64,000 bases of DNA, from positions 89,214 to 153,213 of the forward strand of contig CAZOQX010000001.1 in assembly GCA_964582465.1 (NCBI GenBank), read 5' to 3'. The notes under the pieces are model-generated. The model ran no database searches, had not been told where the DNA came from, and saw only the letters and a program-made list of their open reading frames with translations. Positions within the stretch are counted from its first letter, which is position 1. Every line of letters begins with the position of its first letter. Positions 6,353 through 30,761 of the stretch are shown here, one piece after another. The stretch is from an uncultured Candidatus Saccharibacteria bacterium. Lineage in GTDB: Bacteria; Patescibacteriota; Saccharimonadia; UBA4664; CAZOQX01. The position numbers were made by a program, and so were the translations under genes.

Positions 6353-6427
<75 letters not shown>

Positions 6428-9552: not shown

Positions 9553-9568
9553 TTGCGCGGGCCAGACC

Positions 9569-12080: not shown

Positions 12081-12968
12081 ATGAGCAAGGGCGTTGCCAG
12101 TCCGTTTTACACCCATGTTCAAGAATTTCGGCGCAGGCTATTCTGGACAGCTTTAGTTTTTCTGGGAGGCGCTGGAGCTGGCTATTTCTTTCGTTTACCA
12201 CTGACTAAGGTACTAAACCAGCCGATTGCTCAGCCACTTTTTTATACTTCTCCGAGCGGCGGGTTTGATTTCTACGTGAAGATTAGTTTGGCGGTTGGGT
12301 TGATGGCTGCAATCCCGGCAATTCTGTATCATCTTGTCCGTTTTATCGACCCGGCTTTTGAACGGAAAATCCATGGCCGACATCTAAGCTTGCTTGTCTT
12401 GCTCTCGTTTACGTTGATGCTAGCCGGCATGGCGTTCGCTTGGTTTGTGGTGTTACCAATGAGTTTGCACTTCTTTTCGAGCTATAACAGCCACTTTTTA
12501 AATCCACTCATCTCGGGTACGGAGTACCTCGCCTTTATTATCAACATGTTGGTAACATTTGCTCTCATTTTCCAGCTGCCCCTGCTGCTGCTGTCCGTCA
12601 ATTGGATTACCCCGATCAAGCCGCGCAAATTATTGAAGTTCCAACGCTACGTGATCGTGGGCAGCCTAATTATTGCCGTCATTTTGCCCTTTACCTACGA
12701 CCCAATTACCCAATTTGTGATTGCGCTGCCGATCATCGGTCTCTATGAATTCTCGGTGCTATTGATTTGGATGGTCAACCGCAGGCCGAAGTATAACTTT
12801 GACGCCTTCCCGAATTATCTACCACAGGACAATCTTAAGCTGGCTGGCCCAGAGCCGGCTACGGTGTTCGTCGATTTGCCTACGCTTGCCCCACCTGCGA
12901 AGATATCCCACCCTGTGCCCTCAAGGGTGCTTGACCTCAGGTCACCACAGCGTAATTACGCCGCTTAA
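12081..12968 (+). CDS. tatC: Twin-arginine translocase subunit TatC
   Basis: 295 aa, 6 TM helices. Conserved N-terminal region HVQEFRRRLFW. Confidence 0.9.
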   Translation: MSKGVASPFYTHVQEFRRRLFWTALVFLGGAGAGYFFRLPLTKVLNQPIAQPLFYTSPSGGFDFYVKISLAVGLMAAIPAILYHLVRFIDPAFERKIHGRHLSLLVLLSFTLMLAGMAFAWFVVLPMSLHFFSSYNSHFLNPLISGTEYLAFIINMLVTFALIFQLPLLLLSVNWITPIKPRKLLKFQRYVIVGSLIIAVILPFTYDPITQFVIALPIIGLYEFSVLLIWMVNRRPKYNFDAFPNYLPQDNLKLAGPEPATVFVDLPTLAPPAKISHPVPSRVLDLRSPQRNYAA

Positions 12969-12973
12969 GCCCA

Positions 12974-15208
12974 TTAGCTAGCTCCCGTTCTAGCTGAGGC
13001 AACCGTGCGAGTGGCAGATAGCGATCGGGTAGTAGCGCTAGTGTGAGTCGTGGCTGAGGGACGCTTGGTAGTAAAGTCAAAGCCAGTGTTACCAGAAACA
13101 TTGGTACCATGGTAGGCCAAGACGGGTGTACGGGTACCGGTAACCGTGATGTCTTGGATGGAGTTATAACTCGATACCCAGGTGCCCGAGGAGCCGAGAG
13201 CGATGGTGGCAGCAGTACCACCAACATTAGATTTGATAGTCAAAACCTTAGTTGAGATCCCAACCGAAGTGAAAGACGTCTGAATGGTCTGAGTAACGTT
13301 CGGACTTAAGTTAATAGTTTTGGCACTTCCCCCGATAAGGAGGCGGTTATAGGTATTCGCTCCCGTGACTGTCAGGGTAGCCGTAGAGTTGGAATCATAT
13401 GTCACTGTACCAAAAGTGGTTCCGTTCGGCGCAAAAGTCATAGTTGCTACAGCTGATCCTGGAGATATCGTAAAAGTCGCTGAGCTAGCATTCACAGTAC
13501 CGCTCGTAACATTGACGATGCTAATGGCATCACGGTTACAGTTCAAAATGATATTCGAGCTTCCCAAGTTGAACGTTCCGCCCGTACAGGTAAACTGGCA
13601 GACAGTGACGGTTTTGCTGTTAGTATCGAAGGTTCCCGCCGAGGCGGTAACGGAAGAGGACGTCGCCCCAGAGGCGGGGGCAAAAGTCAGATTGTCTTGT
13701 AGAGTATAGGTTCCGCCGCCAGATGCCACCTGCGGCCGCCAGCCTAAACCCAAACGCATGCCGTTCGTGGTTAGAGTTTGGCTGCCCCTCCCCCGAAGCA
13801 CCCAGTTGATTACTGCAGCGTCTGCAGTCATGGCTCCTAGAGTTAAGTTGCCGTAAAAGGTGGAATCAAGGTTAGGCGCAAGAGTTGGATTATTAGCAAT
13901 AGCCGAGAAATTCACATGCCGACCTTTACGGGGCATGTCACCGGTGATCGTCCTTCCAGTTGAAGTAATCGAATTGGCGGTAAAGAACACATCGTCCTGC
14001 GCCAAAGGCACCGTTGCACCTGAGGCACCGCCATCTGAAGTTGACCATGAAGTAGTGTTACTCCAGTTACCGCCGGTCGTTGCTACCCAGTAACGATTGA
14101 CGCCGTTGCCGCCATTAGATGTACCGGCGTTAACAGTGAAAGTAATATTCGAATTGCCTAAAGCATCTCCGAGCGAAGTTCCCGTCCAGGCCGCGTTACC
14201 GGGCAGACCAGCACCCGTGATGTCTTGAAAGTCGGCGTTAGTCAGCGAAATGGCCCCAGCTGTAATCGTGGTTGCGGCTCCAAGGGTGTTAGCCTGCACG
14301 AGCAGTCTATTTGTCAGCGAGTTACCAGTAGCAGTAAAGGTGTTCGTGATAGTAACGGAGGAGTGACCCCATGATATTGAGTCAGTCTTGGCGGTCGTAC
14401 CCGTACGGGTAAGGTTTGTGTACGTTGGGTTAGTCGCGTTATTGTCGCCCATGGTCACTATGCCAGAGCCAGAAAAGATCACGGTCCCGTAAGTAACTGC
14501 GGTATTGCCCCCTCGAAAGGTGACGGCTGCCCCTGAGCAAGTAATCGTTGAACTCGCAGCATTGAGCGTCATCCCGCTTGAGTTCTGAGATTGCCATGAA
14601 GTACCGGCGCCTGTGATTGTGATAGCTGAATTTGTAATGGTCAAAGTCCTTGTATTGGTGTTATTCGAGTTAAAATTGCCCAACGAAAGTGTTTGGCCAT
14701 TGGTGTCGAGCGTACCTTGGGTCAGTGTGACAGTACCCGTTGAGTTAGTATTTAATGCACTCGTCAATTGGTAGCTTCCGGTCACGCTCCCCGACCCGAA
14801 GGTAACAGTATTGGGCATGGTCTTGCCCTTAGTGTCAACCACTTGGGGGGTAGCAGCGGTTGTCCTAAGCAAGACCTGGGCCGACTTATTGACCCCCAGT
14901 GTATAGGTCATGGCGTTAGAAAACTTCAGGATTACGTTACCAGTTCCCGCCGTGGCATCACCCATGTTAAGTAGGGTGGAATCACTATGGGTCAGAACGC
15001 CCCCGTAGTCACCCGTTCCAGAGGTACAGTCCAAGGAACGGCAAGCCGAGTTAATGTCTATTGTGACGTTGCCACTGCCTGTTTCGAAAATAACGTCATC
15101 AGCAGTCGTGGGTGGGCCAGACGAATCACCCCCAGCCGACGAGACGTTAGACCATGTACTAGCGGCACTCCAATTGCCACCAGCTGCTTTAGCGTAGAGC
15201 GTAGCCAT
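12974..15208 (-). CDS. Giant paralogous Thr/Ser/Gly/Asn-rich beta-helix-like surface/adhesin-like protein (744 aa), paralog 6 of 6
   Basis: N-terminal module MATLYAKAAGGNWSAASTWS...PPTTADDVIFETGSGNVTID. Repeated GTLDTNGQTxSxG and NxxNTRTLTxxNS motifs. Conserved C-terminal tail ...PVLAYHGT...TRTGAS. Start overlaps the upstream stop (TAATG). Confidence 0.8.
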   Translation of the reverse strand: MATLYAKAAGGNWSAASTWSNVSSAGGDSSGPPTTADDVIFETGSGNVTIDINSACRSLDCTSGTGDYGGVLTHSDSTLLNMGDATAGTGNVILKFSNAMTYTLGVNKSAQVLLRTTAATPQVVDTKGKTMPNTVTFGSGSVTGSYQLTSALNTNSTGTVTLTQGTLDTNGQTLSLGNFNSNNTNTRTLTITNSAITITGAGTSWQSQNSSGMTLNAASSTITCSGAAVTFRGGNTAVTYGTVIFSGSGIVTMGDNNATNPTYTNLTRTGTTAKTDSISWGHSSVTITNTFTATGNSLTNRLLVQANTLGAATTITAGAISLTNADFQDITGAGLPGNAAWTGTSLGDALGNSNITFTVNAGTSNGGNGVNRYWVATTGGNWSNTTSWSTSDGGASGATVPLAQDDVFFTANSITSTGRTITGDMPRKGRHVNFSAIANNPTLAPNLDSTFYGNLTLGAMTADAAVINWVLRGRGSQTLTTNGMRLGLGWRPQVASGGGTYTLQDNLTFAPASGATSSSVTASAGTFDTNSKTVTVCQFTCTGGTFNLGSSNIILNCNRDAISIVNVTSGTVNASSATFTISPGSAVATMTFAPNGTTFGTVTYDSNSTATLTVTGANTYNRLLIGGSAKTINLSPNVTQTIQTSFTSVGISTKVLTIKSNVGGTAATIALGSSGTWVSSYNSIQDITVTGTRTPVLAYHGTNVSGNTGFDFTTKRPSATTHTSATTRSLSATRTVASARTGAS

Positions 15209-18200
15209 CAGCTGGCCCCCGTTCTGGTAGAGGCTAAAGTTCTGGCGTTAGCGCGTGCCCTCGTGACTCCTATCACGCTGCGGGTTACGCTGTTCGGCCG
15301 AATGGCGGAGAAATTGAAGCCCGTGTTGCCCGAAACGTTAGTGCCACGATGAGCTGCCACGGGGATATTGCCAGTCACGGTGATATCGGTTAGAACATTA
15401 TTAGTTTGTGACCAAATACCGGTAGCACCGAGCGCAAATATAACGGGCGTGCCCGGAGTAGCGGAACTGATCGTAATGGGTGAACTAGATCGCCCGATTG
15501 TAGTCATGTACCCCGTAACTGTGAAGGTTTGACCGGCTTGAACGGAAATGGTGTTCACGTCTATAACCACATTCCTAAACGTCGGCGACTGGTTGAACGT
15601 AAACGCCGGTGTTGAGCGGCCTATGATGAGGTCGATATTAGTATAAACATTATTGCCCCAAGATAATTGATGCGGTGTGACTGCCGCCTTATCCCCGACG
15701 ACAATCTGTCCCGCTGATGGGCCGATAGTTGTAGCAGTAGCACTCAGGGTGTATGGCGTACCATTAACACCAATCCCCAACCCAGTGATGATAATTTTGC
15801 CATTATTAAAGGTCAAAACTTTGGTTTGTCCATTATTACCGTTAAAAAGCGGGGTAGTAAGAGCGAACCCATTTAAATTAAGTTCTCCCGTTCCCAAACT
15901 GTTTACGCCCGTTGCACTGGTGAGGGTCATATTATCCATTAATTTATAGCTACCTATGCCGGCTTGAATTTGGCAAGGGGGAGCAATAACGCCGCCTGTG
16001 GTGAGGGTTTGGATGCCTCCGCGTCCGTTATAAATAACTACGTTGTTGTACGTCCCATTCGTTGTTCCGGTCTGGTTCCAGTTGCCCCCAACTGTCACGG
16101 CACCACCGGCGTTGAAGCTTAGTGTGGGTCTATTTTTAACGGCCGAAAAATCAATATCTTTACCGATTCTTACTTGATCCACAGTGATGGTCATACTGGT
16201 TGAGCCGACTGATGCGGCGTTAATATTTACCGCGTCGTGGATTAAGGGGATACTGGCTCCACTTGACCCTCCCGATGAAGCCGACCACGAGTTAGTACTG
16301 GCCCAAGTAATGTTTGGATTTTTGACTGTCACTGTGGCGGCGTTCGTAGAGCTTTCGGTGAACGAGGCTGTACCGGCCGACTGCGTCGTAAAGTTGGCAT
16401 CAAAGGCTGTTGTCCCGGCAATACCGTTTAAAACTACGACTCGGTAAATGTTACCCGTTGCCCAGTTGGAAGTACCGCCGCCGTTACCGATTTCCAGTAG
16501 CTGTGTGCCATCAAACAAGCCCTCAATCGTGGTCGATATGTTTGCGCCTAGCTGCGTCCAGACACTCGGAACGCTGGCGGAATCAGCGGCGGTGAAGAAC
16601 TGCACCGTGCCGGTAGTGCTGTCTCTGGTTGCCCGTACCCACATAGTTGCTCCATTAGTAATACCATTTACCACCGTTGAAGTGGCAGTGCGGAGGGTTG
16701 AACCGTTGGCGCTAGTTCTAAGATTGAAGTTACCCGCCGTATCAACGTAAAAAGCATAGGAGCAGGTTGAGGTCGAGGCGTACTTTGCTGCTAAGTACTG
16801 AACGGCCGCAGGATTGGTCCAGTTATCTAGAGCGACCCTCACCCTTATATCAATCGAGCCGGTAATGGATAGGGCAGCTGAGTCAGGGGCGGTGGCTTCA
16901 CCTGTAGTTAAGCCATTCAGTCTTAAGTATGATCCGTTAAGAGCAGCTGCCGAAACCATATACCTTGTAACTGGGGTGGTAAATTTAGTGCCGGCATTGC
17001 CGTTGCCGTCACCAGAGAGCCCCGTCACCGCCGATAGATCGAGAGGGGTTGCCGTAGTGCCCCCAACCACCCACGTTGAGGCCGAATTAGCCTTTTCAAG
17101 CATAGAACCATCGATATAAAACGTAGTTGCTAGGGTGCCATTGACCTTGACTCCTACCTGCAGGGCATTGCCGAGCGTCGGGTGGGGAGTATTGCCCATC
17201 GTTAAAGTAATTGAGTACCGATCCCACCCTCCGGTAGCAGTACCACTGGAAGTGTAGACGGCACCGTTAGCCCCAAAGTCTACTCCCGCCAAAGTGATGG
17301 GTGTGCCGGCCGGAGCCAGGATATATGTTGAATACGTGTAGGTTGTACCCGACGCGCCATCGGGCAGGCCTTGGCTTGCGCCCAACACATATTGCCAAGC
17401 GCCTTCAGTGGCTCTGGCCGTATCAGTTACAACCTGGAAAGAATAATTTCCTTCCCAAGCAAAGTTAGAGCTAAAGGCGCTACTGGCAGCAGCATTGGCA
17501 GTAGAGTTGTTAGAGTTGGCGCTCCAGCCGCCACTTGAGATTTCCACCCTAGAGCAATGGGGCCTTAAGATATTGTCGCCGGCATTAAAGTTACTCTCCT
17601 TATAAAAGAAAATGTCCTGAAAGTCGCAATTGGAGATCGACGGGGTGTTAGTGTAAATGATATATCTGGCGCTGCCGACCGTGCCGTTGACCACGCTAAT
17701 ACGGTTTGTCACGCTATTGCCCGCAAAAGTGATATTAGTACAAGTCACCGTGGTACTAAGGGCAAGACTGTCTAGTTTAGAGGCCGTGCCGGTGCGAGTG
17801 AGGGTAGATATGGTTGTGCCAGTCGCTGCCGATGTTAAAACTGCCTGCCCGGTCCCCGTGAAGTTGACTGTGCCATAGGCTTGGCCACTGCCCGAAAAAG
17901 TAGCGGCCGCCCCACTTATGGTGATGGTTGAAGAAGCCGCTGAACAAGTTAAACCGGTAATCGCTCCCATGTTAAACGAGGTACCAGTACCAGTGATGGT
18001 TACATTAGCCGTACCAAATACAATCGTTCGGTTGTTTGAGTTATTGGTATTGAATAGTCCCCAAGAAATTGTCTGATTATTTAAATCAAGGGTTCCACTG
18101 CTGAGAGTGGTGGTCGAAGTAGCGGTAGACGTCCAAGCCCGGGTTAGTTGCCACGAACCACCGCTTTGGAACTGAACGTTCCCGGTAGTCGTACCTACAC

Positions 18201-18573
18201 CAAAGTCAACCGTCTGTACCGTTGCCGATGTCGAAGAGAACCTCAAGAGAGAATTTGTGGCACTCACTGGCGTATATGTTCCCGTGAACTTCCAAGCCAC
18301 GTTGCCCGGGCCTGGCGTAGCGTCTCCAATGTCTAATATAAAGGTGGTGTTGTGTGTGAGTGTGCCGGCATAATTGCCTGTCCCAGCGGTGCAGTCTAGG
18401 CTGCGGCAAGCGCCCGAGGCGTCGATAGTTACATTCCCTGAGCCGGCTTCAAAGATAACATTGTCGGCAGACGTTGGAGGTCCGGCCGAATCACCTCCAC
18501 CAGAACCAGTCGCAGACCATGTACCGGCAGCAGACCAGTTACCACCAGCGGCTTTAGCGTAAAGCGTGGCCAT
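15208..18573 (-). CDS. Giant paralogous beta-helix-like protein (1121 aa) with CBM4/9-like and LamG-like inserts, paralog 5
   Basis: Same N- and C-terminal modules. Internal carbohydrate-binding-module-like segment (...FYIDGSMLEKA...). Concanavalin-A/LamG-like segment (YLRLNGLTTGEATAPDSAALSITGSIDIRVRVALDNWT). Confidence 0.8.
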   Translation of the reverse strand: MATLYAKAAGGNWSAAGTWSATGSGGGDSAGPPTSADNVIFEAGSGNVTIDASGACRSLDCTAGTGNYAGTLTHNTTFILDIGDATPGPGNVAWKFTGTYTPVSATNSLLRFSSTSATVQTVDFGVGTTTGNVQFQSGGSWQLTRAWTSTATSTTTLSSGTLDLNNQTISWGLFNTNNSNNRTIVFGTANVTITGTGTSFNMGAITGLTCSAASSTITISGAAATFSGSGQAYGTVNFTGTGQAVLTSAATGTTISTLTRTGTASKLDSLALSTTVTCTNITFAGNSVTNRISVVNGTVGSARYIIYTNTPSISNCDFQDIFFYKESNFNAGDNILRPHCSRVEISSGGWSANSNNSTANAAASSAFSSNFAWEGNYSFQVVTDTARATEGAWQYVLGASQGLPDGASGTTYTYSTYILAPAGTPITLAGVDFGANGAVYTSSGTATGGWDRYSITLTMGNTPHPTLGNALQVGVKVNGTLATTFYIDGSMLEKANSASTWVVGGTTATPLDLSAVTGLSGDGNGNAGTKFTTPVTRYMVSAAALNGSYLRLNGLTTGEATAPDSAALSITGSIDIRVRVALDNWTNPAAVQYLAAKYASTSTCSYAFYVDTAGNFNLRTSANGSTLRTATSTVVNGITNGATMWVRATRDSTTGTVQFFTAADSASVPSVWTQLGANISTTIEGLFDGTQLLEIGNGGGTSNWATGNIYRVVVLNGIAGTTAFDANFTTQSAGTASFTESSTNAATVTVKNPNITWASTNSWSASSGGSSGASIPLIHDAVNINAASVGSTSMTITVDQVRIGKDIDFSAVKNRPTLSFNAGGAVTVGGNWNQTGTTNGTYNNVVIYNGRGGIQTLTTGGVIAPPCQIQAGIGSYKLMDNMTLTSATGVNSLGTGELNLNGFALTTPLFNGNNGQTKVLTFNNGKIIITGLGIGVNGTPYTLSATATTIGPSAGQIVVGDKAAVTPHQLSWGNNVYTNIDLIIGRSTPAFTFNQSPTFRNVVIDVNTISVQAGQTFTVTGYMTTIGRSSSPITISSATPGTPVIFALGATGIWSQTNNVLTDITVTGNIPVAAHRGTNVSGNTGFNFSAIRPNSVTRSVIGVTRARANARTLASTRTGAS

Positions 18574-20684
18574 TAGCTGGCTCCCGTTCTAGTTGATGCG
18601 ACTGTGCGGGCGGCAGAGACTGCTCTGGTTGAGGCTGAACTGTGAGCAACGGCTGAGGGGCGCACAGTACTGGTGGTGATGCCGGTGGTGTTAGAGAGAG
18701 TGCCGTGGTAAGCCAAGACAGGCCTGCGGGTACCGGTGACAGTGATATCTGTGATGGTGTTGTAGGCGGATTGCCAAGTACCTGAACCGAGAGCAATGGT
18801 GGCGTTTGAACCTGGCGTCGATGAGTTAATAGTGATCACCTTGGTGGGGTCGGCGACGGCGGTCAAGGCTCCAGTGATGGTTTGGGTAATGGCACTAGTC
18901 AGGGTAACAGTTTTGGGCGACTGGATAGTCACGTTAGCAAATGTGTTGGCACCGGTGAAAGTAACGGCTCCGATGCCGCCGCCAGCAATCACGAGGTTGT
19001 TGTAGGTTTTGCCGGCACCAGAGAACTGCTTTGACGAAGCCGTGGTGTTGGTGGAGTTGATAGTCGATGTCTGAGCGTTGACTGTGATGTTCGTGCCAAC
19101 AACCCAAAACTGACTAGTGCCAGTCAAGTTCCAAGTCCCCGAGCCCATGTTGATCGTAGTCCCGTTTATGGCTCCGGACGTGGTTTCGCCCACAGCCGTC
19201 ACGTTATGGCCGTTAGCGTCAAACGTACCTGAAGTGATACTTATAGTATTGCCAGGAATGACAAGATCGTCTTGTAGCGCATAAGTACCACCCGGTGCGG
19301 CGACTATGAACGCTCTTGGCATGGTCTTTCCGGCGCTTGTCATGGTGTAGTTCGAGCGGCCGCTAAGTTGGACTGAAATGTTCCCGCCGAAGGTCATTGC
19401 CGATGATAGGGTCAAAGAGCCAAAGAAGAAGTTCGTAATGCCGCCGCCACCGGACATAGTGAAGGTTCTGGTAAAGTCGGTGAAGTTGACGTTCTTTCCA
19501 AGCCTCGGCATATCTCCCGTCAGGGTCCCAGCCGTGGTTGTGTTGATGATGACGTCATCCTGGGGCAGCGGCACGCGTGAAGTCCAGGCAGCGGCACTCG
19601 ACCAGTTATTGGTTCCGCCAACGTAGGTCTGCGTAACTGGGGCATCAAACGTGATGTTCGAATTTCCTTGAGCATCCCCTAGCGACGTACCCGTCCAAGC
19701 AGCATTGGCTGGCAGGCCAGCTCCGGTGATGTCCTGAAAGTCCACGTTTGTCAGCGAAATGGCAGCCGCGTTGAGGGTACGTGACGTACCGACAGTGTCG
19801 CTCTGGACAAGCAACCTGTTGGTGGTCGAGTTGCCAGTAATTGTCAGCGTACCTGTAACAGTCAGGGTGTTGATCCCGAGAATTAGACTGTCTGTCTTGA
19901 CGTTGGTACCCGTTCTCGTAAAGTTTGCGACTGTCAGGTTGTTATTCAAGAGCTTGGGCGTACCGGCCCCAGAGAACACGACTGATGCGCCATTCAAGTT
20001 TAGCGCACTGGTCACTGGCTGTATTGTATTGTTCCCCGAGTAGGTCCCCGTGAATGTGAGGATAGCCGTGTTGGCTGTGACCGTGAGATTATCGGATCGG
20101 ATTTGGTTGGAACCTGTGCCGTTAAGTGTGATCAGTGAGTTGCCAAGCGTCAGCGTGCGCGTGTTGGCATTGTTGGAGGCGAACTGTCCCCAAGAGCAAG
20201 TCTGACCATTAGTATCTAGTGTACCCAGAGTTAGCACAACTGTTTGGCCACCTGAGTTGAAGGTACCAGTGAGCTGCCATGAACCGCCCGCCCCGTTAAA
20301 ATTCACCGGGCCGCTAGATGTTTGGTTGGCAAAATCGACTGCTTGGACAGTTGAGGAGGTTGATAAGAAGGAAATAGTACCACCAGCTGTATATGTCATA
20401 CCTGCCACAAATTTCAGAGCAATGTTGGAAGCACCTGGGGTGGAATCGCCAATGGCTAGGGTGATACCTCCCGAAGCCATTGCCAGAATATGTGTAAACC
20501 CAGTGCAGTTAATTGAACGACAATTGGAGGCTACGTCGATAGTGCAGTTGCCGGGTGAAGAGGCAGTGAAAAACACATCGTCAGCTGAAGTCGGGACGGA
20601 GAAACCAGAGCTACCACCATCAGAATCTGACCATGATGCGGTCGAGCTCCAGTTGGTGCCGCTGCCGACAAAATAGCGCGCCAC
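18573..20684 (-). CDS. Giant paralogous beta-helix-like protein (703 aa), paralog 4
   Basis: N-terminus MARYFVGSGTNWSSTASWSDSDGGSSGFSVPTSADDVFFT is a variant of the NW-S module. Conserved TRTGAS tail. TAATG coupling at both ends. Confidence 0.8.
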   Translation of the reverse strand: MARYFVGSGTNWSSTASWSDSDGGSSGFSVPTSADDVFFTASSPGNCTIDVASNCRSINCTGFTHILAMASGGITLAIGDSTPGASNIALKFVAGMTYTAGGTISFLSTSSTVQAVDFANQTSSGPVNFNGAGGSWQLTGTFNSGGQTVVLTLGTLDTNGQTCSWGQFASNNANTRTLTLGNSLITLNGTGSNQIRSDNLTVTANTAILTFTGTYSGNNTIQPVTSALNLNGASVVFSGAGTPKLLNNNLTVANFTRTGTNVKTDSLILGINTLTVTGTLTITGNSTTNRLLVQSDTVGTSRTLNAAAISLTNVDFQDITGAGLPANAAWTGTSLGDAQGNSNITFDAPVTQTYVGGTNNWSSAAAWTSRVPLPQDDVIINTTTAGTLTGDMPRLGKNVNFTDFTRTFTMSGGGGITNFFFGSLTLSSAMTFGGNISVQLSGRSNYTMTSAGKTMPRAFIVAAPGGTYALQDDLVIPGNTISITSGTFDANGHNVTAVGETTSGAINGTTINMGSGTWNLTGTSQFWVVGTNITVNAQTSTINSTNTTASSKQFSGAGKTYNNLVIAGGGIGAVTFTGANTFANVTIQSPKTVTLTSAITQTITGALTAVADPTKVITINSSTPGSNATIALGSGTWQSAYNTITDITVTGTRRPVLAYHGTLSNTTGITTSTVRPSAVAHSSASTRAVSAARTVASTRTGAS

Positions 20685-22834: not shown

Positions 22835-25800
22835 CAGCTGGCCCCCGTTCTAGTTGAGGATAAAGTGCGGGGGGCTGAAAGAGATCGGGTAGAAGCAGAA
22901 CTATGTGGAGTGGCAGAGGGTCGTTTGGTAGTAAAGTCAAAGCCGGTGTTGCCGGAAACATTAGTACCGTGATAAGCGAGGACGGGGGTACGGGTACCGG
23001 TCACAGTGATGTCTTGAATTGAGTTATATGAGGATACCCAGGTACCGGAGGTGCCGAGGGCGATGGTGGCGGGGGTACCCGAAACTGTCGAGTAAATATG
23101 GGTGCGTTGTGAATCCAGCCCCCAACGATTAGCCAGATAATATTCTATTGAACTTAAGTTTGGTATGGTTAAGGCCTGGTTGTAGATTAAAACCTCAAAA
23201 ATATCGCCTACAAAAAATTCAGAATCGTTATTTCTGGCCCCAATTCTGCCAGAGGTAAAGGTAGCGGTGTTATTGACCATTGCGACTGGGTTTGTTACTT
23301 GAGCCCCATCTTTTCTTGAGAAGCCAGAGTCTGCTGCCCAGTAAGAAGTAAAAATATGGGGGTCAGTGTCCAGAGGAGTATAGCGATCGGTACGAGTTAC
23401 TCCGTCATCCCCAGCCCGTGTTTGACCAAATTGCGTCCCATTGGTGATTGCAAACAGATATATATTTGATACACCTCCTAATCCAATAATATCTTTGTTG
23501 CTCGCTGTATTTGTTGCCCTTGCCACTACAAACACAACACAAGGAACATCATTGCCAGCCATCGCAGCCACTAAACCTGCGGGCATAACCATATCATCAT
23601 TCACCCCATCAAAGCGCATTGAGGCCATCCCATTCATAACATTAGTCGTGTAGGTTGGTCTGGCTGTGCCAGATTGGGTAACATCAAAGCCATTACCCGA
23701 TTGATCTTGCCAGGTTGATACGGGGTCACCATTTGACCCTGAGTATTGATCGGCTTTAAGCCATAGTTTGCATCCTGCAATTGAGGTTGGAACTATGATT
23801 GCAGGGTTGGTTGAGCCCGGGCCAATGGTTGTGATCGATTGATTAACCGTCGTAACCTGCGATACAGGAAAGATCAAAGTCTTTTGTCCTTGTCCACTGA
23901 CAATAATCTTATTGAACGTGTTCGCCCCGGTAAAAGACAGTGCTTGGGGAGTATCTTGGGCATATCTCAGGATATTGTAGCTCCAGCCACCGCCCGCAAA
24001 GGTCTTATCTACTATGCCCTGACCCGTCAGGCTGATGGTAGAGGTTCCCGAATTAAGTGAAACCATTGTTGTCGCAGCAGTCCAGACCGTACCTGTACTG
24101 TTCACTGTCCATATACCCGCCCCCATGGTGATGGCTGTCTGTCCCTGAAAAGTAATAGTCGTCGCTTTAACGTTATGATTGTTGGCTGAGAAAGTTGTCC
24201 CGACGGCAATCACTAAATTACGGTTTATCCCCATGTCAAAATCATCTTGGAGGGTATAGTTGCCGCCTGGAGCTGCAATTGTGGTAGTGGCTGTCCCTGC
24301 CATCGCGTGACCCGCCATCGTTATGGTATAAGTTCCTCTGCCTTGGAGTTGAAGATTTATTCCCGTCCCAAAGGCGGTTCCAACACCAGCCCCCAAGGTA
24401 AGACTTCCATATAAGATAGGGGCACCAGTCAGGCTTAGGGTTGGAGAGCCCGTTGCCCCGCTAAAATCAAGACTCTTGCCCAATCGAGGCATATCCATGG
24501 TCACGCTTCGCCCCGCCACAAAAGCATTATTTACAACTACGTTATCTTGAGGGAGCGGGACTCTAGTTGTCCAGCCATGAGTGCTCCAGGTGAAAGAGGC
24601 CGTCCCGGTGGCAGTTTGCGTAGCGGCAGGAGTAAAGGTCATCCCCCCATTGCCGCCAGCATCTCCCGACTTGCCTGTTATGGCCGAGAGATCAACTGGG
24701 GTGGTGGCCGTTCCTCCAACTACCCAAGTGGAGGCCGAGGAGTTTTGTTCAAACATCATCCCATCCACATAGAAGGTGGCGGCAACAGCGGCGTTGGTTG
24801 ATACGCCAAGCATTATGGCATTGCCTAGTGTTGGCGAAGGATTATGGCCTGACGTGAAGGAGACGGATAATCTATCCCATGTTCCTAAACCAGTTGCCGT
24901 ACCAGTTCCGGTGTAAACCGTTCCGTTATTACAGAAGTCACAAACAGCCACTCTGAGTGGGGTTCCGGCTGCTGCCTGAACGTAGGCTGAGAAGGTATAG
25001 GCGGTGTCAGACTGAGCATCGACTAGACCTTGGGCTTTGCCCATCACGTATTCCCACATCCCCTGCAAGCTCACACTTCCTGAAGTTGTCAGCTTCATAC
25101 AGTAAGTCCCTTGCCAAGGAGTAACTTCGGTACTTACCGCCCCGGTTAAGGCGATGTTAGAGGTTGAGTTATTAGAATTGAAGCTCCAGCTGCCGATAGA
25201 AAGAGTCTCAAAAGAGGAGTCGGCTACTCTCATGATGTTGCCTCCTGCCGTATAAGCCGAGTTTTTAAACATTAGAATGTCGGCAAAATCGACGTTGGAA
25301 GTAGTCAAGGTAGTACCGTAAGCAAGATATCGCATTGTCCCCACAGTGTTGCTTTGCACAATCAGGCGATTAGTAACGGAGTTGCCAGCCAGCGTCAGCG
25401 TACCGCTCACGTATATACCAGAGCCACCCAGCGCGACTGACCCCGTTAGAGTCGCTGGCCCATTGACGGTTAGATTCGCCAAGATAAACGATGCGGTACC
25501 CGCCAACGTTATAGCCGAGCCATTGAGCGTAAATGATGCGCCGTTCATATTGAGGGCATTGGAAACATTAAAACCACCAGCGGAAAGTGTCCACGTTGAT
25601 GTGTTTGCCGAGACTGTCAGTAAAGTAGCATTAACCAAAAACGCGGAATTGGACGAGGAGGTGAGGGTTATGGCACTAGCTCCGAGAGTAAGTACTGCCG
25701 TAGTAGAGAGGCTATGAGCGAAAGTGTTCCACGAACAGGTTTGCCCGTTGGTATCTAAAGTTCCAGCGCTCAAAGTAAGGTTTCGACATGTCACACCGGA

Positions 25801-26238
25801 TGAGAATTGCCAACTGGCACCAGCGCCATTAAATGTAACATCAGTTGATGCCCCTAAATTTTTAGCCACGAAATCAACGATCTGTTGGGTCGTAGAGGTA
25901 GATATAAAACTGATAGTAAGAGCCCCCACTGCCGTATAGGTCATACCTGCCGAGAACTTTAGGGCTACGTTCCCTGCGCCAGCCGTTGCATCCCCAATGC
26001 TCAAGACAAAGGCGTTATGGGTCAACGTTCCACCGTAGTTACCAGTTCCCGAAGTACAATCTAAAGAACGGCAGGCGGAAGTAGCATCGATCGTGACGTT
26101 GCCGCTTCCCAATTCAAAGATCACATTATCTGAGGCGGTTGGCGGCCCCGCACTGTCTGCCCCCCCAGATCCTGTTGCGGACCACGTACCCGCCGCAGAC
26201 CAGTTACCACCCGCGGCTTTGGCATAAAGTGTAGCCAT
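22834..26238 (-). CDS. Giant paralogous beta-helix-like protein (1134 aa) with CBM4/9-like and LamG-like lectin inserts, paralog 2
   Basis: CBM-like segment (...ATFYVDGMMFEQNSSASTWVVGG). LamG-like jelly-roll segment (LWLKADQYSGSNGDPVSTWQDQSGNGFDVTQ...RFDGVNDDM...). Conserved N- and C-terminal modules. Confidence 0.8.
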   Translation of the reverse strand: MATLYAKAAGGNWSAAGTWSATGSGGADSAGPPTASDNVIFELGSGNVTIDATSACRSLDCTSGTGNYGGTLTHNAFVLSIGDATAGAGNVALKFSAGMTYTAVGALTISFISTSTTQQIVDFVAKNLGASTDVTFNGAGASWQFSSGVTCRNLTLSAGTLDTNGQTCSWNTFAHSLSTTAVLTLGASAITLTSSSNSAFLVNATLLTVSANTSTWTLSAGGFNVSNALNMNGASFTLNGSAITLAGTASFILANLTVNGPATLTGSVALGGSGIYVSGTLTLAGNSVTNRLIVQSNTVGTMRYLAYGTTLTTSNVDFADILMFKNSAYTAGGNIMRVADSSFETLSIGSWSFNSNNSTSNIALTGAVSTEVTPWQGTYCMKLTTSGSVSLQGMWEYVMGKAQGLVDAQSDTAYTFSAYVQAAAGTPLRVAVCDFCNNGTVYTGTGTATGLGTWDRLSVSFTSGHNPSPTLGNAIMLGVSTNAAVAATFYVDGMMFEQNSSASTWVVGGTATTPVDLSAITGKSGDAGGNGGMTFTPAATQTATGTASFTWSTHGWTTRVPLPQDNVVVNNAFVAGRSVTMDMPRLGKSLDFSGATGSPTLSLTGAPILYGSLTLGAGVGTAFGTGINLQLQGRGTYTITMAGHAMAGTATTTIAAPGGNYTLQDDFDMGINRNLVIAVGTTFSANNHNVKATTITFQGQTAITMGAGIWTVNSTGTVWTAATTMVSLNSGTSTISLTGQGIVDKTFAGGGWSYNILRYAQDTPQALSFTGANTFNKIIVSGQGQKTLIFPVSQVTTVNQSITTIGPGSTNPAIIVPTSIAGCKLWLKADQYSGSNGDPVSTWQDQSGNGFDVTQSGTARPTYTTNVMNGMASMRFDGVNDDMVMPAGLVAAMAGNDVPCVVFVVARATNTASNKDIIGLGGVSNIYLFAITNGTQFGQTRAGDDGVTRTDRYTPLDTDPHIFTSYWAADSGFSRKDGAQVTNPVAMVNNTATFTSGRIGARNNDSEFFVGDIFEVLIYNQALTIPNLSSIEYYLANRWGLDSQRTHIYSTVSGTPATIALGTSGTWVSSYNSIQDITVTGTRTPVLAYHGTNVSGNTGFDFTTKRPSATPHSSASTRSLSAPRTLSSTRTGAS

Positions 26239-29000
26239 TAGCTAGCTCCTGTTCTAGTTGAGGCTACCGTGCGGGTAACGGCCGTAGACCTTGTTGTGGC
26301 TGGGGTGTGTGGTATAGCGGATGGCCGGACGGTACTTGATGTAATACCAGTGGCGTTAGAAAGAGTGCCGTGGTAGGCCAACACGGGGATGCGAGTACCG
26401 GTGACAGTACAATCGGTAATGGAGTTGAAAGCCGAGGACCAAGTGCCAGAAGTGCCGAGACCGACAGTGTATCCCTGTCCGGGAGTGCTCGAATTGAAGG
26501 TAATAGCCTTTGTTGAAGTCCCTAAACTTATGATGTTTGATACGTTAGTAGTGCTTCCTGCGAATGTAGTAACAGTTGTTCCTGCTGGGATATAGATATT
26601 GTGAAAATTTCTACCGGGTGCACCCGTAGAAGTTCCAAAATTGATAACACCAGTTCCTCCAGCAAATCTCAAGTCGTATAAGGTAAATGCTCCCAAGACA
26701 AGAGTCTTCTGAGTAGAGGTCGTGTTGGCAATGATGATTTCTGACGTTGATGGGTTAACCGTAAGATTAGTAACCCCAGAAACGGTAAAAACAGTTCCCG
26801 TTGCCGTTAGTATCAGCTTACCCGATCCCATATTAAAGACTGTTCCTGCTACTGTAGGGGATGAGGAGAAGCCACCACAAGTAAAGTTATGGTTGTTCAT
26901 ACTAAAAGTTCCTGAGTTAAATCCAGAAGCAGAGGCAGAGTTTGAGACAAAGTCATCCTGAAGGGTATACGAACCTGCTAGGGCGTTTATTGACAGTACA
27001 CCCGTCCAAGTTACCCCACTTGAAGTGATTGTGTGCGCACCACGGCCTCTTAATATCTGGCTTTGGCCACCCGAAAAAGTCATGCCCGATCTTAAGGTGA
27101 TACTCCCATAATAAGAGGGGCCGCCCGATACAACAGCGGCGCTTGACAAGGTAAACGCCACAGTTGACCCCGAGCAATCAACATTGGCGCCAATATGGTT
27201 CATTTCGATTGTGACAGTTTTACTGGCCGTTCCCATATTGATAAAGACGTTATCTTGAGGCAGCGGAATACGAGAAGTCCACGAAGTTACAGCTGACCAG
27301 TTGGCGCTGGTTTTATTTATAGATACGGTAGCGGCATTGGCTGAGGATTCAGTAAACGAGAGGGCGTCTACAGATTGAGCCGTAAAGTCAGCATTAAAAA
27401 CGGGTGTCCCCGCCCCTGATCCTAAGGCTGAGCCATAGATTTTAGCATTGTAAACATTCCCTTTCAAAAGAGCATTCGTGCCGGCTGTATTAGAGCCAAC
27501 CTCCAAAATGCTAGTAGTATCTGCGATAGTAGCTACCCCCACCGTTGTAATTGTCGTCCCAAGCTGAGTCCATGTAGAGCCGTCATCTGACATATAAAAA
27601 TTACAGACTCTGTGTCCAGCACCGTCGTTTAACGTTAGCGAGCCTCGTAACCATTTAGTGGAGCCATCTGCCAGGCCAGTCGCGACACTTGATATATTAT
27701 TTAGAAAGTTAGTCCCATCGGCTGATGTTCTCATTTGGAGTGTCCCCGCAACCAGAACTTCCAAGCCATAAGCGAACTGACCAGAAACTGCTACCTTAGC
27801 AACGGTCTCGTTATTTGCTGCCGGTGTCCAGTCGTCCAGTGATACTTTGACGTCTATTGTAATATCAGTTGTTATCGATAGAGCTGCTGAGTCGGGAGCC
27901 GAAACATAACCACCCGACACACCATTTAACCTCAAGCTTGTACCCGTTAGTTGGGCTTGCCCATAGTATTGGGTAACTGGCGAAGGGAAAGTGATGCCGG
28001 AATTTCCTAGGCAATCTCCGAGCAAAGTTCCGGTTAAACTGCCCGCAGAACCAGTGATGATAATATCCATAAAATCAACATACTGGTGGGCACCGTGTGA
28101 GCCATTGACGGTAATGGTTGTAGTTTGGCCAGCAGTACCAGAAAAAACAAGAACTCGGTTTATGGCAGAGTTGCCACTTAATGTAAACGTGCCCGTGACG
28201 GTAATTGCCCCTGTAATTTGAAGACCAAACCCTTTATTGACCGGGCCAGTGTAGGTGAAATTTGTGATGGTTGGGCCAGATGAGACGGTTTGGGTGGCAT
28301 TGGCTAATCCGAAAGAGACAGTGCCATAAGTCATACCCGCCCCGCCCGAAAAGACATTGGAGCCATTTCCGTTTAAGTTAATGGTTGAAGAGGCGGCAGA
28401 CAGCGTAAGGTTTCCTACATTTGTCATCGACCAACTGCCTGAGCTGTTGTTTAGCAAAATCGTGGAAGTTCCGACAGTGATTGACCTGACGTCAGTTGTG
28501 GTTGACGTGAAGGACTTTAAGGTCATATTGAAGTTGGCGGTGTTGAAGGTTCCTTTGTTGACGTTAAAGGTCGTCGAAGAGATGAAGGCATCCTGGAGGG
28601 TAACCGTTCCGCCATTGGTTGACCCTGTAAAACCGATGGCGATAGGACAAGACCAGGTTTTTGTAGCCGTAGTTAAGGCACAGGTTCCGCCCGATGCTGC
28701 AATAGTAATAGTACCTGCATAGGTCATCGTCCCCATCGTGGAAGCCAAAGTTAAATCACCCCGTACTGTTAGATTGAAGGTCCCCGCGAATATGCCGGTA
28801 TAACCGGTGCCACCAGCAAAGGTGAGACTGGCACAGTCGGCGGCCTGGTTGACGGTTACGGTGCCGCCACCGGAAGAGCTATCAAAAGTTACAGGGTCAG
28901 TCGAAACTGGCACCGAAAAACCGCTAGAACCACCAGACGAATCCGACCAGTGAGCCGTATCGCTCCAGTTACCGGTACCGCCAACCCAAAAGCGCGCCAT
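26238..29000 (-). CDS. Giant paralogous beta-helix-like protein (920 aa) with LamG-like insert, paralog 1
   Basis: N-terminus MARFWVGGTGNWSDTAHWSDSSGGSSGFSVPVSTDPVTF. LamG-like segment LRLNGVSGGYVSAPDSAALSITTDITIDVKVSLDDWT. C-terminal TRTGAS tail. Confidence 0.8.
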   Translation of the reverse strand: MARFWVGGTGNWSDTAHWSDSSGGSSGFSVPVSTDPVTFDSSSGGGTVTVNQAADCASLTFAGGTGYTGIFAGTFNLTVRGDLTLASTMGTMTYAGTITIAASGGTCALTTATKTWSCPIAIGFTGSTNGGTVTLQDAFISSTTFNVNKGTFNTANFNMTLKSFTSTTTDVRSITVGTSTILLNNSSGSWSMTNVGNLTLSAASSTINLNGNGSNVFSGGAGMTYGTVSFGLANATQTVSSGPTITNFTYTGPVNKGFGLQITGAITVTGTFTLSGNSAINRVLVFSGTAGQTTTITVNGSHGAHQYVDFMDIIITGSAGSLTGTLLGDCLGNSGITFPSPVTQYYGQAQLTGTSLRLNGVSGGYVSAPDSAALSITTDITIDVKVSLDDWTPAANNETVAKVAVSGQFAYGLEVLVAGTLQMRTSADGTNFLNNISSVATGLADGSTKWLRGSLTLNDGAGHRVCNFYMSDDGSTWTQLGTTITTVGVATIADTTSILEVGSNTAGTNALLKGNVYNAKIYGSALGSGAGTPVFNADFTAQSVDALSFTESSANAATVSINKTSANWSAVTSWTSRIPLPQDNVFINMGTASKTVTIEMNHIGANVDCSGSTVAFTLSSAAVVSGGPSYYGSITLRSGMTFSGGQSQILRGRGAHTITSSGVTWTGVLSINALAGSYTLQDDFVSNSASASGFNSGTFSMNNHNFTCGGFSSSPTVAGTVFNMGSGKLILTATGTVFTVSGVTNLTVNPSTSEIIIANTTSTQKTLVLGAFTLYDLRFAGGTGVINFGTSTGAPGRNFHNIYIPAGTTVTTFAGSTTNVSNIISLGTSTKAITFNSSTPGQGYTVGLGTSGTWSSAFNSITDCTVTGTRIPVLAYHGTLSNATGITSSTVRPSAIPHTPATTRSTAVTRTVASTRTGAS

Positions 29001-29049
29001 TAGCTGGCTCCTGCTCTGGTGTTAGGTGACACCAAGGTAACCACGAGGC

Positions 29050-30630
29050 CTACCTATAACTGATCGTGACGTTGACGTCTGCCGTGGTGGTAAAGTCGGC
29101 GTAAAGTCCCGTATTAAATTTACTGTTAATAGTAACTGAGAGCGGCATGAAGAAGGTCGTCGTAAAAGCGGTTGAAAATATCTTAGTGCCAGAGTTGGTG
29201 GTGTTATCGTAAATATCCAAGTTTCCAGCGGTGGGAGCGGAGTCGTTACAAGCAAAGGTGATGGTGTGAATGAAGCCGGCACCCGATTTGATGAGTGTAT
29301 CGGCAGTCACCATGTTGTAGCTCATCTGCTGCTCGACCTTCATGACGTCGTTGGTTTGGTCTTCGCCGGCCACCTTAGTGGCTTGGGTGACGTACAGGGC
29401 ACCGTTAGCGTCTACCTGGAAGGGTTCGTAATCGCCGTTAGTGTTGCCAGCCGAAAGGTCGGTAGGGGTGGATTGGCGGATACCCAGTACCATAAAGCCA
29501 GTGTCGCCGGAGGTGTGGGCCGCATCCTCATTCTTGGCTGCGGCCAGACGAATACGACCGGCTGAGTCAACCGCTATCGGCGAATAGTCACCGTCAGTAT
29601 CGGTCAGGGTGATGGCGTTATCATTTCTGACACCCAGGCTCATCACTCCGGTATCACCGGAAACGTGGGGAGCGTCTTCGGCTTTACCGAGATTGGCTGC
29701 ACCAGTGCCGGGGGTAACGGACCCGGTAGCATTAGATTTAATGTTTACATCAAGTGCATTGCTAGTTGAGCCAATGACGTTGCCGGAGCCGTCAACTACC
29801 TGAGTTTTTTGGCTACCATCAGACTGCTTGGCGCTAGTGGAGGCACCGGTGGGGAGCGAAACTGTTCCGGAAACATTATTAACATTCCAAGTGCCTGATT
29901 GCGTAGCAGCAACGGTGCCGTCAACGGTAATTGAGTTGCCGCCATCTTGAATGTTGACGGCGTTAGCTCCAGAGCCATTATTAACCTTTGTTCCTACGTC
30001 AGTCTGGTCGCTGGCAATTACAACTGGTGTTGATCCGGCCATGTTGGCCTGCCCCTTGTCGGGAGTTTTGGTATCGATTGAATCCAGCGAAGTATTGCCA
30101 ACATCTTGCTTAGCTTCGGTAGCGGCTCCACTGGGTAGGTCCACACTAGCATCCACTTGCACTTTGCCGTCTTTAACGGTTCCGGCGAGGGTTCCCAGCT
30201 TGGTGTTGCCGTCGTTTTGCTTTTCTTCCGTCGCAGGGTTAATGCGCCCGCCAGCAGCGTTTTTCAGGCCAACCACACCACTAACTGTGCCACCGGAATC
30301 ACTAGGCTGCCAAGTTGATGTACTAGAATCGTAAGCCAGTACTTGACCGCCGCGGGGAGTAATGTCGGCTAAACTTTGGCCGCGCAAGCTCAAGGCGTCG
30401 CGAGCATTTCTTAAAGCAGCTCGAACCTCGGGTGATAAATCAGATACCGGAACACCATCTGCCGGCTTGGTGTACTTCCGCCGAACGTTACTTTCGACGT
30501 CGACGAGACCCGCTACTCCGATTATACCCAATGCGCCGAGACCAAGCTTGGCTAAGAAATCCTTACGACTGAGTGGTTGGTTGATTTGCTCGGGTAGATC
30601 AGGAAGGTGTTGCGAGAAACTCGGTTCCAT
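29050..30630 (-). CDS. Repetitive fibre-like Thr/Ser/Gly/Asp-rich protein (526 aa) with a Tat-like N-terminal signal; first gene of the giant-protein operon
   Basis: N-terminus ...LSRKDFLAKLGLGALGIIGVAGLV is an S-R-K-x-F-L Tat-like n-region plus h-region. Repeated xTE(A/E)KQ(D/N)xGNT motifs. Two ~50-aa tandem repeats (DAPHVSGDTGVMSLGVR... / DAAHTSGDTGFMVLGIR...). Confidence 0.7.
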   Translation of the reverse strand: MEPSFSQHLPDLPEQINQPLSRKDFLAKLGLGALGIIGVAGLVDVESNVRRKYTKPADGVPVSDLSPEVRAALRNARDALSLRGQSLADITPRGGQVLAYDSSTSTWQPSDSGGTVSGVVGLKNAAGGRINPATEEKQNDGNTKLGTLAGTVKDGKVQVDASVDLPSGAATEAKQDVGNTSLDSIDTKTPDKGQANMAGSTPVVIASDQTDVGTKVNNGSGANAVNIQDGGNSITVDGTVAATQSGTWNVNNVSGTVSLPTGASTSAKQSDGSQKTQVVDGSGNVIGSTSNALDVNIKSNATGSVTPGTGAANLGKAEDAPHVSGDTGVMSLGVRNDNAITLTDTDGDYSPIAVDSAGRIRLAAAKNEDAAHTSGDTGFMVLGIRQSTPTDLSAGNTNGDYEPFQVDANGALYVTQATKVAGEDQTNDVMKVEQQMSYNMVTADTLIKSGAGFIHTITFACNDSAPTAGNLDIYDNTTNSGTKIFSTAFTTTFFMPLSVTINSKFNTGLYADFTTTADVNVTISYR

Positions 30631-30657
30631 TAAACCCCACGCTTAATGCTTACGTTA

Positions 30658-30687
30658 AGTATAAAAGTTTTTATGCTTATAATGCAA
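30658..30687 (-). promoter_or_regulatory. Candidate promoter for the minus-strand giant-protein operon (TTGCAT-N18-TATACT read on the minus strand)
   Basis: Hexamers read by eye in the divergent intergenic region between 30630 and lepA. Confidence 0.35.
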
Positions 30688-30761
30688 ATCTTTTTGCCTA
30701 GCCGTAAGCATTTGGTGTTGAAGGTTTTGCCTAATATTTTTTGACTAGCTATGCTAGAGCC

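Follow-up and report, generated by a model that had tools for sequence, protein, structure and literature searches.

An array of seven co-directional genes lies on the minus strand at positions 12974-30630 of the 64,000-nt stretch of an uncultured Candidatus Saccharibacteria contig analysed here (the window, to which all positions refer unless another locus or contig is named; loci and contigs used for comparison carry L-numbers). It consists of a 526-aa leader gene followed by six paralogues encoding proteins of 703-1134 aa, referred to by their lengths. Our preferred explanation, to which we assign a probability of roughly 0.42, is that phages of Candidate Phyla Radiation (CPR) bacteria supplied a two-component fibre module, which has been domesticated as the array, fixed and expanded in a Saccharimonadia chromosome and displayed on the cell surface. 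The taking over of phage structural genes by a cell is of a known kind; what is unusual here is the sixfold expansion, the signal apparently acquired by the partner protein and the adjacency to genes of the twin-arginine translocation (Tat) system.

According to this proposal, the leader would act as an anchor, its N-terminus targeting or tethering it to the cytoplasmic membrane, its repeats forming a stalk and its C-terminal jelly-roll a dock. The six beta-helix proteins would be alternative heads that bind, and perhaps cleave, glycans, some having lectin-like inserts, and each would dock through a common Arg/Thr-rich C-terminal tail. As these proteins would have evolved to fold in the cytoplasm like virion parts, and the heads lack a signal, we propose that the complex might cross the membrane folded through the adjacent TatA and TatC, led by the leader in a form of hitchhiking. 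On the surface of this wall-attached episymbiont, such an array could provide multi-specific attachment to partner-cell polysaccharides, from which we infer a role in host attachment.

Both gene families derive, as their relatives show, from phage virion (head/neck) modules; hence, of the two origins offered in the preliminary description of this DNA, the domesticated phage tailspike or fibre cluster is the right one. More than 1000 homologues of the paralogues were found in a large protein collection, many of them on contigs of around 40 kb, with the best non-self matches being 40-50% identical over more than 90% of the query (E down to 1e-134). None of the 120 homologues listed had a precomputed Pfam domain, and a family hidden Markov model matched all six paralogues at E 1e-126 or better. 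All six of the homologue contexts recovered by exact look-up were phage structural modules: these contained Phage_capsid_2/4 (L001); a small terminase (GP3_package) and SU10_portal, with SU10_adaptor directly downstream (L002); SU10_MCP (L004); a Gp13-like capsid (L005); the terminase, portal, S78 protease, HK97 capsid, tape measure and Dit of a siphophage (L043); and sugar-nucleotide and glycosyltransferase genes preceding the beta-helix gene (L044). The phage gene is single-copy and lies by head/neck genes, in the interval from capsid to adaptor or in that from portal to protease. As the fibres of SU10 itself are encoded after its adaptor (PMC9509320), this position does not tell a head, neck or tail fibre apart. 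The phage of L002 is identical to a stretch of a 168.8-kb contig binned to a Saccharimonadales metagenome-assembled genome (MAG); this is consistent with a prophage of that lineage and suggests that phages carrying the family infect it. The leader has more than 2500 homologues, which share its fibre-type repeats (aa ~60-420), among them a unit of consensus GKAEDAAHxSGDxGV..L.VR.D......DGDY.P..VD..G.L.V; their contexts were phage-like in L041 and L042, having many small genes, HNH and ART-PolyVal, and were SU10-like phages in L004 and L132. Both families were nearly absent from 50,697 cultured-phage records, with 3 and 1 partial matches, and a literature search found, with the terms used, no description of this beta-helix family or of such an array.

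Two further observations concern the relatives of the paralogues. Glycosyltransferase, methyltransferase and dTDP-sugar genes lie just upstream of the jelly-roll and beta-helix pair in L004 (4381-7350) and L044 (232-5281), which hints that the Thr/Ser-rich virion proteins may be glycosylated. In CPR and Omnitrophota MAG contigs (L008, L013, L014, L016, L017, L021 and L036), the beta-helix family occurs within giant stop-to-stop frames, of ~2,450 aa in L008 and up to ~6,700 aa in L036, and the apparent tandem copies in tblastn searches are fused.

The array is chromosomal, and is not part of a prophage. It is flanked by genes for FtsH, MurJ, TatA and TatC on one side and LepA, HrcA, GrpE, DnaK and DnaJ on the other, and the remaining 46 kb of the window has a housekeeping character, including RuvABC, YebC, ComEC, DnaN, type IV pilus parts and ABC transporters. 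No capsid, portal, terminase, integrase or lysis genes were found in the window, Pfam searches of the 36 other open reading frames (ORFs) returning cellular families only; neither holin nor endolysin is present in the cluster or the window, no att repeat was found at the array, and tblastn of phage hallmark proteins from L001-L005 against the window gave no match except for the leader-like protein. The closest named relatives of the LepA protein, at 74% identity, are from Candidatus Saccharimonadales/Saccharimonadia and Patescibacteria. In the relatives L050 and L051 the gene order is TilS-FtsH-MurJ-LepA-...-HrcA-GrpE-DnaK-DnaJ, with MurJ adjoining LepA in the former and a single 267-aa ORF between them in the latter, and both tatAC and the array are absent at this point. 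Hence, given its housekeeping flanks and these array-free relatives, the array is an insertion in a housekeeping neighbourhood, rather than a component of a complete prophage, which the preliminary description had named as grounds for refuting its reading.

These surroundings bear on the idea that the array serves a mobile element as a reservoir of receptor-binding proteins, a prophage or satellite at another place in the genome drawing on it in trans for alternative fibres and so gaining a wider host range. Multi-tailspike phages widen their host range with fibres encoded in cis, docking ends that are conserved while the bodies diverge make up the classic cassette pattern, and the order of leader then head is that of the phages. 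However, neither the 13 kb upstream nor the 33 kb downstream contains phage genes, and a membrane-targeted leader would be unexpected in a virion part; we consider such a reservoir very unlikely.

The organisation of the array largely follows the preliminary description, which had reported seven minus-strand genes, six of them tandem paralogues, with tatA-tatC convergent on them: all of the ORFs were confirmed (Table 1), as was the convergence, the stops of tatC and p744 being 5 nt apart. The paralogues are 35-54% identical over their common core, and have the Thr/Ser/Gly/Asn-rich texture reported for them (T 16.4%, G 12.1%, S 11.0%), being also rich in Ala. All six had been said to begin with the same N-terminal module, but only four of them start MATLYAKA, p703 starting MARYFVGSGTNWS and p920 MARFWVGGTGNWS. 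Similarly, the gene boundaries had been described as coupled throughout by TAATG overlaps of one base; one stop/start base is indeed shared at all five junctions between paralogues, but only two of these are TAATG, with two being TGATG and one TAGTG, and a 49-nt spacer separates the leader from p920. An AGGAG or GGGGG motif, resembling a Shine-Dalgarno (SD) sequence, is found within the ...RTGAS codons 8-10 nt ahead of the next start, and the paralogue genes are predicted to be translationally coupled. The same AGGAG precedes p920, 8-10 nt before the ATG, in the 49-nt spacer, which may represent the relic of a junction or a translation-initiation region that is shared. A consensus promoter scan of 12700-31100 identified no site in 30631-30740, and promoter and terminator matches were at chance level across the region.

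Table 1. Coordinates of the array, its parts and the adjoining tat genes within the window.
Feature	Position	Strand	Description
tatA	11904..12074	+	56 aa, TTG start; read from translation
tatC	12081..12968	+	295 aa, convergent on array; NCBIfam TIGR00945, E 8e-42, above curated cut-off
p744	12974..15208	-	Predicted two-domain beta-helix, Arg/Thr-rich C-tail; last gene of array
p1121	15208..18573	-	Predicted beta-helix core and two inserts, aa ~330-545 and ~546-765 (the latter matching phrog_5313)
p703	18573..20684	-	GTG start, MARYFVG-type N-terminus
p716	20684..22834	-	Modelled member: two tandem beta-helix domains, disordered tail aa 691-716
p1134	22834..26238	-	Predicted beta-helix core and inserts at aa ~330-540 and aa 822-1056
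p920	26238..29000	-	Most divergent N-domain; one insert, in common with p1121
Leader-p920 spacer	29001..29049	-	49 nt, ending ...accagagcaggagccagctaATG, the 3' coding end of the paralogues
Leader	29050..30630	-	526 aa: signal/anchor-like N-terminal segment, phage fibre-type repeats aa ~60-420, C-terminal jelly-roll
Leader codons 1-45	30496..30630	-	Long n-region, SRKDFLAK, Gly-rich hydrophobic stretch LGLGALGIIGVAGLV
Leader aa 425-526	29053..29358	-	Eight-stranded jelly-roll beta-sandwich, proposed dock for Arg/Thr tails
Leader/lepA spacer	30631..30740		AT-rich, 110 nt, divergent; presumed promoter region of array

The paralogues are old and under purifying selection. They are as distant from one another as from their phage homologues, at around 55% in the N-terminal domain, with only p744 and p716 reaching 67%. 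At the conserved ends of the genes, DNA identity is 45-80%, with a range of 66-80% also obtained, which is too low for recent gene conversion and led to the rejection of that idea. Synonymous divergence is largely saturated, with dS no lower than 0.85; where dN/dS could be computed, most pairs fall at 0.04-0.25, and the most divergent ones reach as much as 0.5. The seven long ORFs total 5864 codons, with no frameshifts or internal stops. The intact frames, together with the kept overlaps and ribosome-binding motifs, point to long-term function rather than decay.

An alternative is that the array is a decaying prophage remnant, tail-end cargo left after a deletion and without present cellular function. 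Both families are indeed phage virion families, the G+C content at third codon positions (GC3) is 0.51 in the cluster against 0.60 in housekeeping genes, and the region is a variable one, with extra ORFs between ftsH and murJ, one of which has a primase-type zinc finger. Set against this are the seven intact ORFs, the saturated dS and low dN/dS of most pairs, the one-base overlap and SD-like motif kept at every paralogue junction, the new N-terminus gained by the leader, and the lack of an integrase, att repeat or other phage gene left behind. We judge this explanation to be distinctly unlikely, an inert remnant being the least likely rival in our synthesis.

The paralogues share an N-terminal cap, a core and a conserved C-terminal module of ~75 residues ending in an Arg/Thr/Ser-rich tail, RPSAxxHTSATTRSxSATRTVASTRTGAS. 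The differences in their size are explained by inserted domains, one in p1121 and p1134, one in p1121 and p920 and one private to p1134. The first two of these received no assignment from sequence searches, and the third is weakly LamG-like (Laminin_G_3, E 6.8e-4, under the Pfam cut-off). Profile searches of all seven proteins against Pfam, NCBIfam and PADLOC found nothing, and PHROGs gave three weak or partial matches, which among the paralogues were confined to two inserts; p1134 matched phrog_10356, 'virion structural protein', at E 7e-17.

Each paralogue is predicted, on the basis of modelling, to be a right-handed parallel beta-helix of two domains. The AlphaFold2 model of p716 (84 homologues) has a predicted local distance difference test score (pLDDT) of 91.9 and a predicted template modelling (TM) score of 0.85, and comprises two tandem beta-helix domains followed by 26 disordered C-terminal residues; correspondingly, the cap motif G-x-W-S-x4-W ... 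P-x3-D-x-V is found at the N-terminus, with a second occurrence at aa ~370. In BFVD this model matched, end to end, a 'parallel beta-helix' protein of an uncultured phage (E 2.9e-24, TM 0.80), and the non-significant Foldseek matches in the PDB (E at least 0.07, TM at most 0.24) were to autotransporter passengers, PL6 lyases, RsaA and tailspikes. The beta-helix fold proposed in the preliminary description is therefore borne out by a confident model, a weak resemblance to PDB entries and a full-length match to an uncultured phage. The autotransporter likeness did not survive as family membership, the paralogues having no Sec signal, no beta-barrel, no Pfam or NCBIfam domain and a disordered C-terminal tail, and the pectate-lyase or tailspike suggestion found no significant match among solved structures (best Foldseek E 0.07) and no match to the Pfam Beta_helix and Pectate_lyase models.

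That the paralogues lack a signal peptide, as first described, was upheld: no hydrophobic segment is present, the maximum Kyte-Doolittle value over 19 residues being at most 1.8 anywhere. Stop-to-stop frames lengthen them by only 1-24 codons and the ORFs already use the first start after the upstream stop, so start-site correction cannot create a Sec signal, and none was found.

The leader, by contrast with its homologues, has gained a new N-terminus that resembles a membrane-targeting signal or anchor. Amongst 119 homologues, residues 1-20 are aligned by none and residues 21-40 by few. The N-terminus carries ...PLSRKDFLAKLGLGALGIIGVAGLV..., and has a 20-residue n-region, then LGLGALGIIGVAGLV, with a Kyte-Doolittle value of 2.28 over 15 residues, then DVESNVRRK. 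The layout is of Tat type: a long n-region leads into an h-region that is Gly-rich and moderately hydrophobic, and basic residues follow. The segment resembles a Tat signal, or alternatively a signal-anchor. A motif of the SRKDFLAK type was found only in the leader among the real ORFs of the window, of the locus L012 and of the 80 tatC loci considered below, and the leader weakly matches NF038009, a family associated with the Tat system (E 0.007; score 16.5 bits, where the cut-off is 100). The structural model is poor outside aa 434-526, where the jelly-roll has a pLDDT of 80-93; Foldseek found weak resemblances of this domain to viral protrusion domains, CBM6/36, TNF-like lectin and the lambda gpJ tip, and generic jelly-roll matches only among the solved structures of the PDB.

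The connection proposed between leader and heads comes from the C-terminal tails. Arg/Thr-rich tails are rare, with 15 matches in 2902 ORF segments: the six window paralogues, two duplicate copies (L003), three phage beta-helices (L004, L043 and L044) and four strays. In all three of these phages, a leader-type or related C-terminal jelly-roll protein is encoded 0-2 genes upstream. The jelly-roll of the leader is 53% identical to the L004 protein, of 262 aa, which is encoded two genes upstream of the beta-helix P0085, and 46% identical to a 368-aa leader homologue of phage L132, directly after which is encoded a 218-aa protein ending GRTVASGRVVA. Beta-helices having the other class of tail (...GGTxxMMGVG or ...[LM][LM]GVG), in L001 and L002, follow a small jelly-roll protein of 139-142 aa, belonging to a group that differs in sequence from the leader type and is paired with ...MGVG tails in L001, L002, L058 and L081. 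Across around nine contexts, the jelly-roll relations of L001, L002, L044, L056 and L058 being judged pairwise, the tail class of the head protein tracks the sequence group of the jelly-roll encoded 0-2 genes upstream, with L056 a mixed case. As the class of the tail tracks that of the partner, these sequences suggest that the Arg/Thr tail may be a docking peptide for the jelly-roll protein. A wider version, which we regard as rather doubtful, is that CPR phages and their hosts share a modular docking code of short peptide tags (Arg/Thr-rich or ...GGTxxLMGVG) at the C-termini of heads that may be beta-helix, LamG-type or CBM-type, fitting matching jelly-roll sockets, and that in Saccharimonadia the socket moved from the virion to the membrane by means of a Tat-type signal, with heads already folded in the cytoplasm exported by hitchhiking through TatAC as an exchangeable adhesin array that serves episymbiotic attachment.

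Of the Saccharibacteria genomes studied in one paper, only one was found to have a complete Tat system (PMC6031116). A metagenome search with tatC as the sole query found nothing, and an alignment of seven TatC sequences found 80 metagenomic loci with TatC relatives. In a second Saccharimonadales MAG (L012), a 907-aa member of the beta-helix family is convergent on tatA-tatC in a cellular context, the TatC there being only 35% identical to that of the window; a TatA homologue adjoins tatC in L012 and in 46 of the 80 loci. In L056 and L058, collagen-like fibres, a leader-type protein and several ...MGVG-tailed proteins are encoded directly after tatC, and in L081 a jelly-roll protein and a ...LLGVGS-tailed protein are convergent on tatC, with the same tailed protein on the short contig L079. 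Tat export of folded complexes is plausible; hitchhiking itself is speculative, with circumstantial support from the new N-terminus of the leader, the single complete Tat system in that paper and the convergence in L012.

Some details of these tatC loci stand apart. The collagen-like fibres of L056 (11287-17502) and L058 (9207-16472) start MARLPQPGGDDGTWG, the LamG-like and small proteins encoded with them all end GGTMGLMGVG, and the C-terminal end of one such collagen-like protein is 52% identical to a minor tail protein of Streptomyces phage Kromp. A conserved small ORF follows tatC in two distant genomes, L012 (12665-13078, 137 aa) and L081 (6415-6813, 132 aa); both products have a signal-like hydrophobic segment at the N-terminus and share VRYV...N...I.EILSN, and the window has no counterpart. 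No relatives of TatC were found in IMG/VR viral contigs, leaving the notion of tatC as phage cargo unsupported, and the import of tatAC along with the phage genes is weakened by some relatives that have tatAC near lepA, ftsH/murJ or dnaK without fibre genes.

A number of results weigh against our proposal. The leader motif S-R-K-D-F-L-A-K has lysine at the second arginine position (RK, not RR), the Tat-signal models TIGR01409 and PF10518 did not match the leader at E <=0.1, and inspection of its sequence by eye revealed no clear AxA cleavage site; nor was a Tat-like signal found in the neighbouring proteins of L012, L056 and L058. No fibre module is seen in 76 of the 80 TatC-relative loci; many of the loci are short, and only around 35 have at least 3 kb of flank. 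In some TatC relatives without fibre genes (L096, L083, L085 and L077), tatA-tatC is near lepA, ftsH/murJ or dnaK; tatAC is thus probably native to this housekeeping neighbourhood in a Tat-bearing subclade, and its adjacency to the array may be positional. An insertion hot spot near tatC is accordingly a live alternative to functional coupling. Heads of 75-115 kDa, if trimers, would strain the capacity of Tat. The docking scheme is weakened by the upstream protein of L043 and L044, whose C-terminal domain has only weak homology with the leader type (35 bits with the 262-aa L004 protein; hhalign P 0.013), by profile comparison, which did not show the leader-type and ...MGVG-associated jelly-roll groups to be homologous, and by the last tail codons being constrained also as the ribosome-binding site of the next gene. 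The difference in GC3 given above likewise counts against the proposal.

Several of these points would equally be expected of a route that does not involve Tat, in which adhesins or depolymerases are freed by the lysis or leakage of a subpopulation and re-bind sister cells, with the adjacency of tatAC being a coincidence or the product of a hot spot. Six of the seven proteins have no signal peptide, the leader motif is RK and matches no Tat model, other tatC-adjacent fibre islands are without Tat-like signals, and some relatives have tatAC here without fibre genes; furthermore, the phage-encoded adhesins PblA and PblB of Streptococcus mitis, which are released by lysis and re-bind cells, provide a precedent. 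However, neither the cluster nor the window encodes a holin or endolysin, the acquired N-terminus of the leader argues for directed membrane targeting, and fibre modules recur beside tatC in several lineages, and we think release of this kind improbable.

Also unlikely, in our assessment, is that the proteins are anti-phage decoys, either cytoplasmic copies of virion fibres that enter or block assembling SU10-like phages, or surface copies that mask a phage receptor. With six diverged paralogues, protection could extend to several phage lineages. The tail class and the first ~60 residues are in common with phage homologues, and conservation is higher at the N-terminus than in the body. The heads lack an export signal, and the phages of the family probably infect the lineage, as indicated by the L002 phage in a Saccharimonadales MAG contig. 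On the other hand, none of the seven proteins matched a PADLOC defence model, the new membrane-targeting segment of the leader is hard to explain in the cytoplasm, and the lectin-like inserts point to ligand binding rather than interference with assembly. Display of the array on the cell surface by way of the leader remains the explanation we favour.

Other features of the window lie outside the array. Between ftsH and murJ, at 9019-10057, are two ORFs not present in L050 or L051, one of 177 aa on the plus strand and one of 162 aa on the minus strand with a match to the DnaG-type (primase-type) zinc finger, constituting a second small insertion nearby. A tRNA-Ile with anticodon TAT is found at 2706-2780, and two tRNA-Met(CAT) genes, 120 nt apart, at 6157-6231 and 6353-6427; one of the CAT tRNAs may be a lysidine-modified Ile tRNA, and a TilS-family gene (PF01171) is found upstream of ftsH in L050 and L051. 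Within 38000-44000, two 2-kb blocks with a G+C content of 0.587, against ~0.52, flank the tRNA-Lys at 41416-41491; ORFs on both strands overlap at 42118-42632, and a co-directional run of plus-strand ORFs extends over 43361-54077. Batch Pfam searches of the window as a whole also identified PilM_2, two N_methyl (pilin) proteins and Competence (ComEC).

Amongst known proteins, the paralogues are closest to the uncharacterised 'parallel beta-helix repeat' virion proteins of uncultured Caudovirales, such as A0A6J5T8W4, encoded in the capsid-adaptor interval of SU10-like podophages, to which they are 27-50% identical over their full length (TM 0.80). The two share the N-terminal GGNWSxxxxWS...PTxxDDV cap, the two-domain plan, the tail classes and the upstream jelly-roll partner gene. 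Unlike the phage genes, however, the array comprises six tandem chromosomal copies without other phage genes, with a partner having a membrane-targeting type of N-terminus and with tatAC adjacent. Regardless of function, the present analysis assigns a very large family, of more than 1000 clusters and with no Pfam or NCBIfam model, to phage head/neck modules, and the pairing of tail peptide with jelly-roll is possibly a general docking scheme. The branched multi-tailspike complexes of phages CBA120 (TSP1-4) and G7C, which dock by N-terminal domains onto the baseplate of a complete phage, resemble the array in having tandem beta-helix receptor-binding paralogues with a conserved docking module and diverged bodies, and CBA120 TSP1 is a weak fold match of p716; in the array, the common module, specific to the locus, is instead a short C-terminal peptide, and the proposed dock a jelly-roll on a membrane-targeted fibre.

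Autotransporter passengers such as pertactin, Ag43 and EspP are similar in being long right-handed beta-helices rich in Thr, Ser, Gly and Asn, and are weak top matches in the PDB (fold E >0.07), but the array paralogues differ in having no Sec signal, no C-terminal beta-barrel and no Pfam or NCBIfam match. PblA and PblB are likewise signal-less phage fibre proteins, which become surface adhesins of a monoderm bacterium; they are encoded in the inducible prophage SM1 and released by its holin and lysin, whereas the array has no prophage and no lysis genes, one component with a signal-like segment, and an adjacent Tat translocase. CPR bacteria are predicted to be Gram-positive, hence no outer membrane is expected in this lineage (PMC9166423). 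Type IV pili are the Saccharibacteria attachment system treated in the papers that the literature search recovered (for example, PMC12206443), and the one described for cultivated members; if displayed on the surface, the array would be a second such system, borrowed from the organism's own phages.

The closest parallel for the proposed export is Tat hitchhiking in E. coli, where a signal-less folded subunit is carried by a Tat-signal partner, the genes being co-transcribed, as in HybO/HybC and DmsA/DmsB. The known hitchhikers are cofactor-containing redox enzymes with canonical RR signals, whereas the cargo of the array would be large phage-type beta-helices and the motif RK. Were it to operate here, hitchhiking would explain how large folded beta-helices are exported by a cell with almost no secretion machinery, and would extend beyond redox enzymes.

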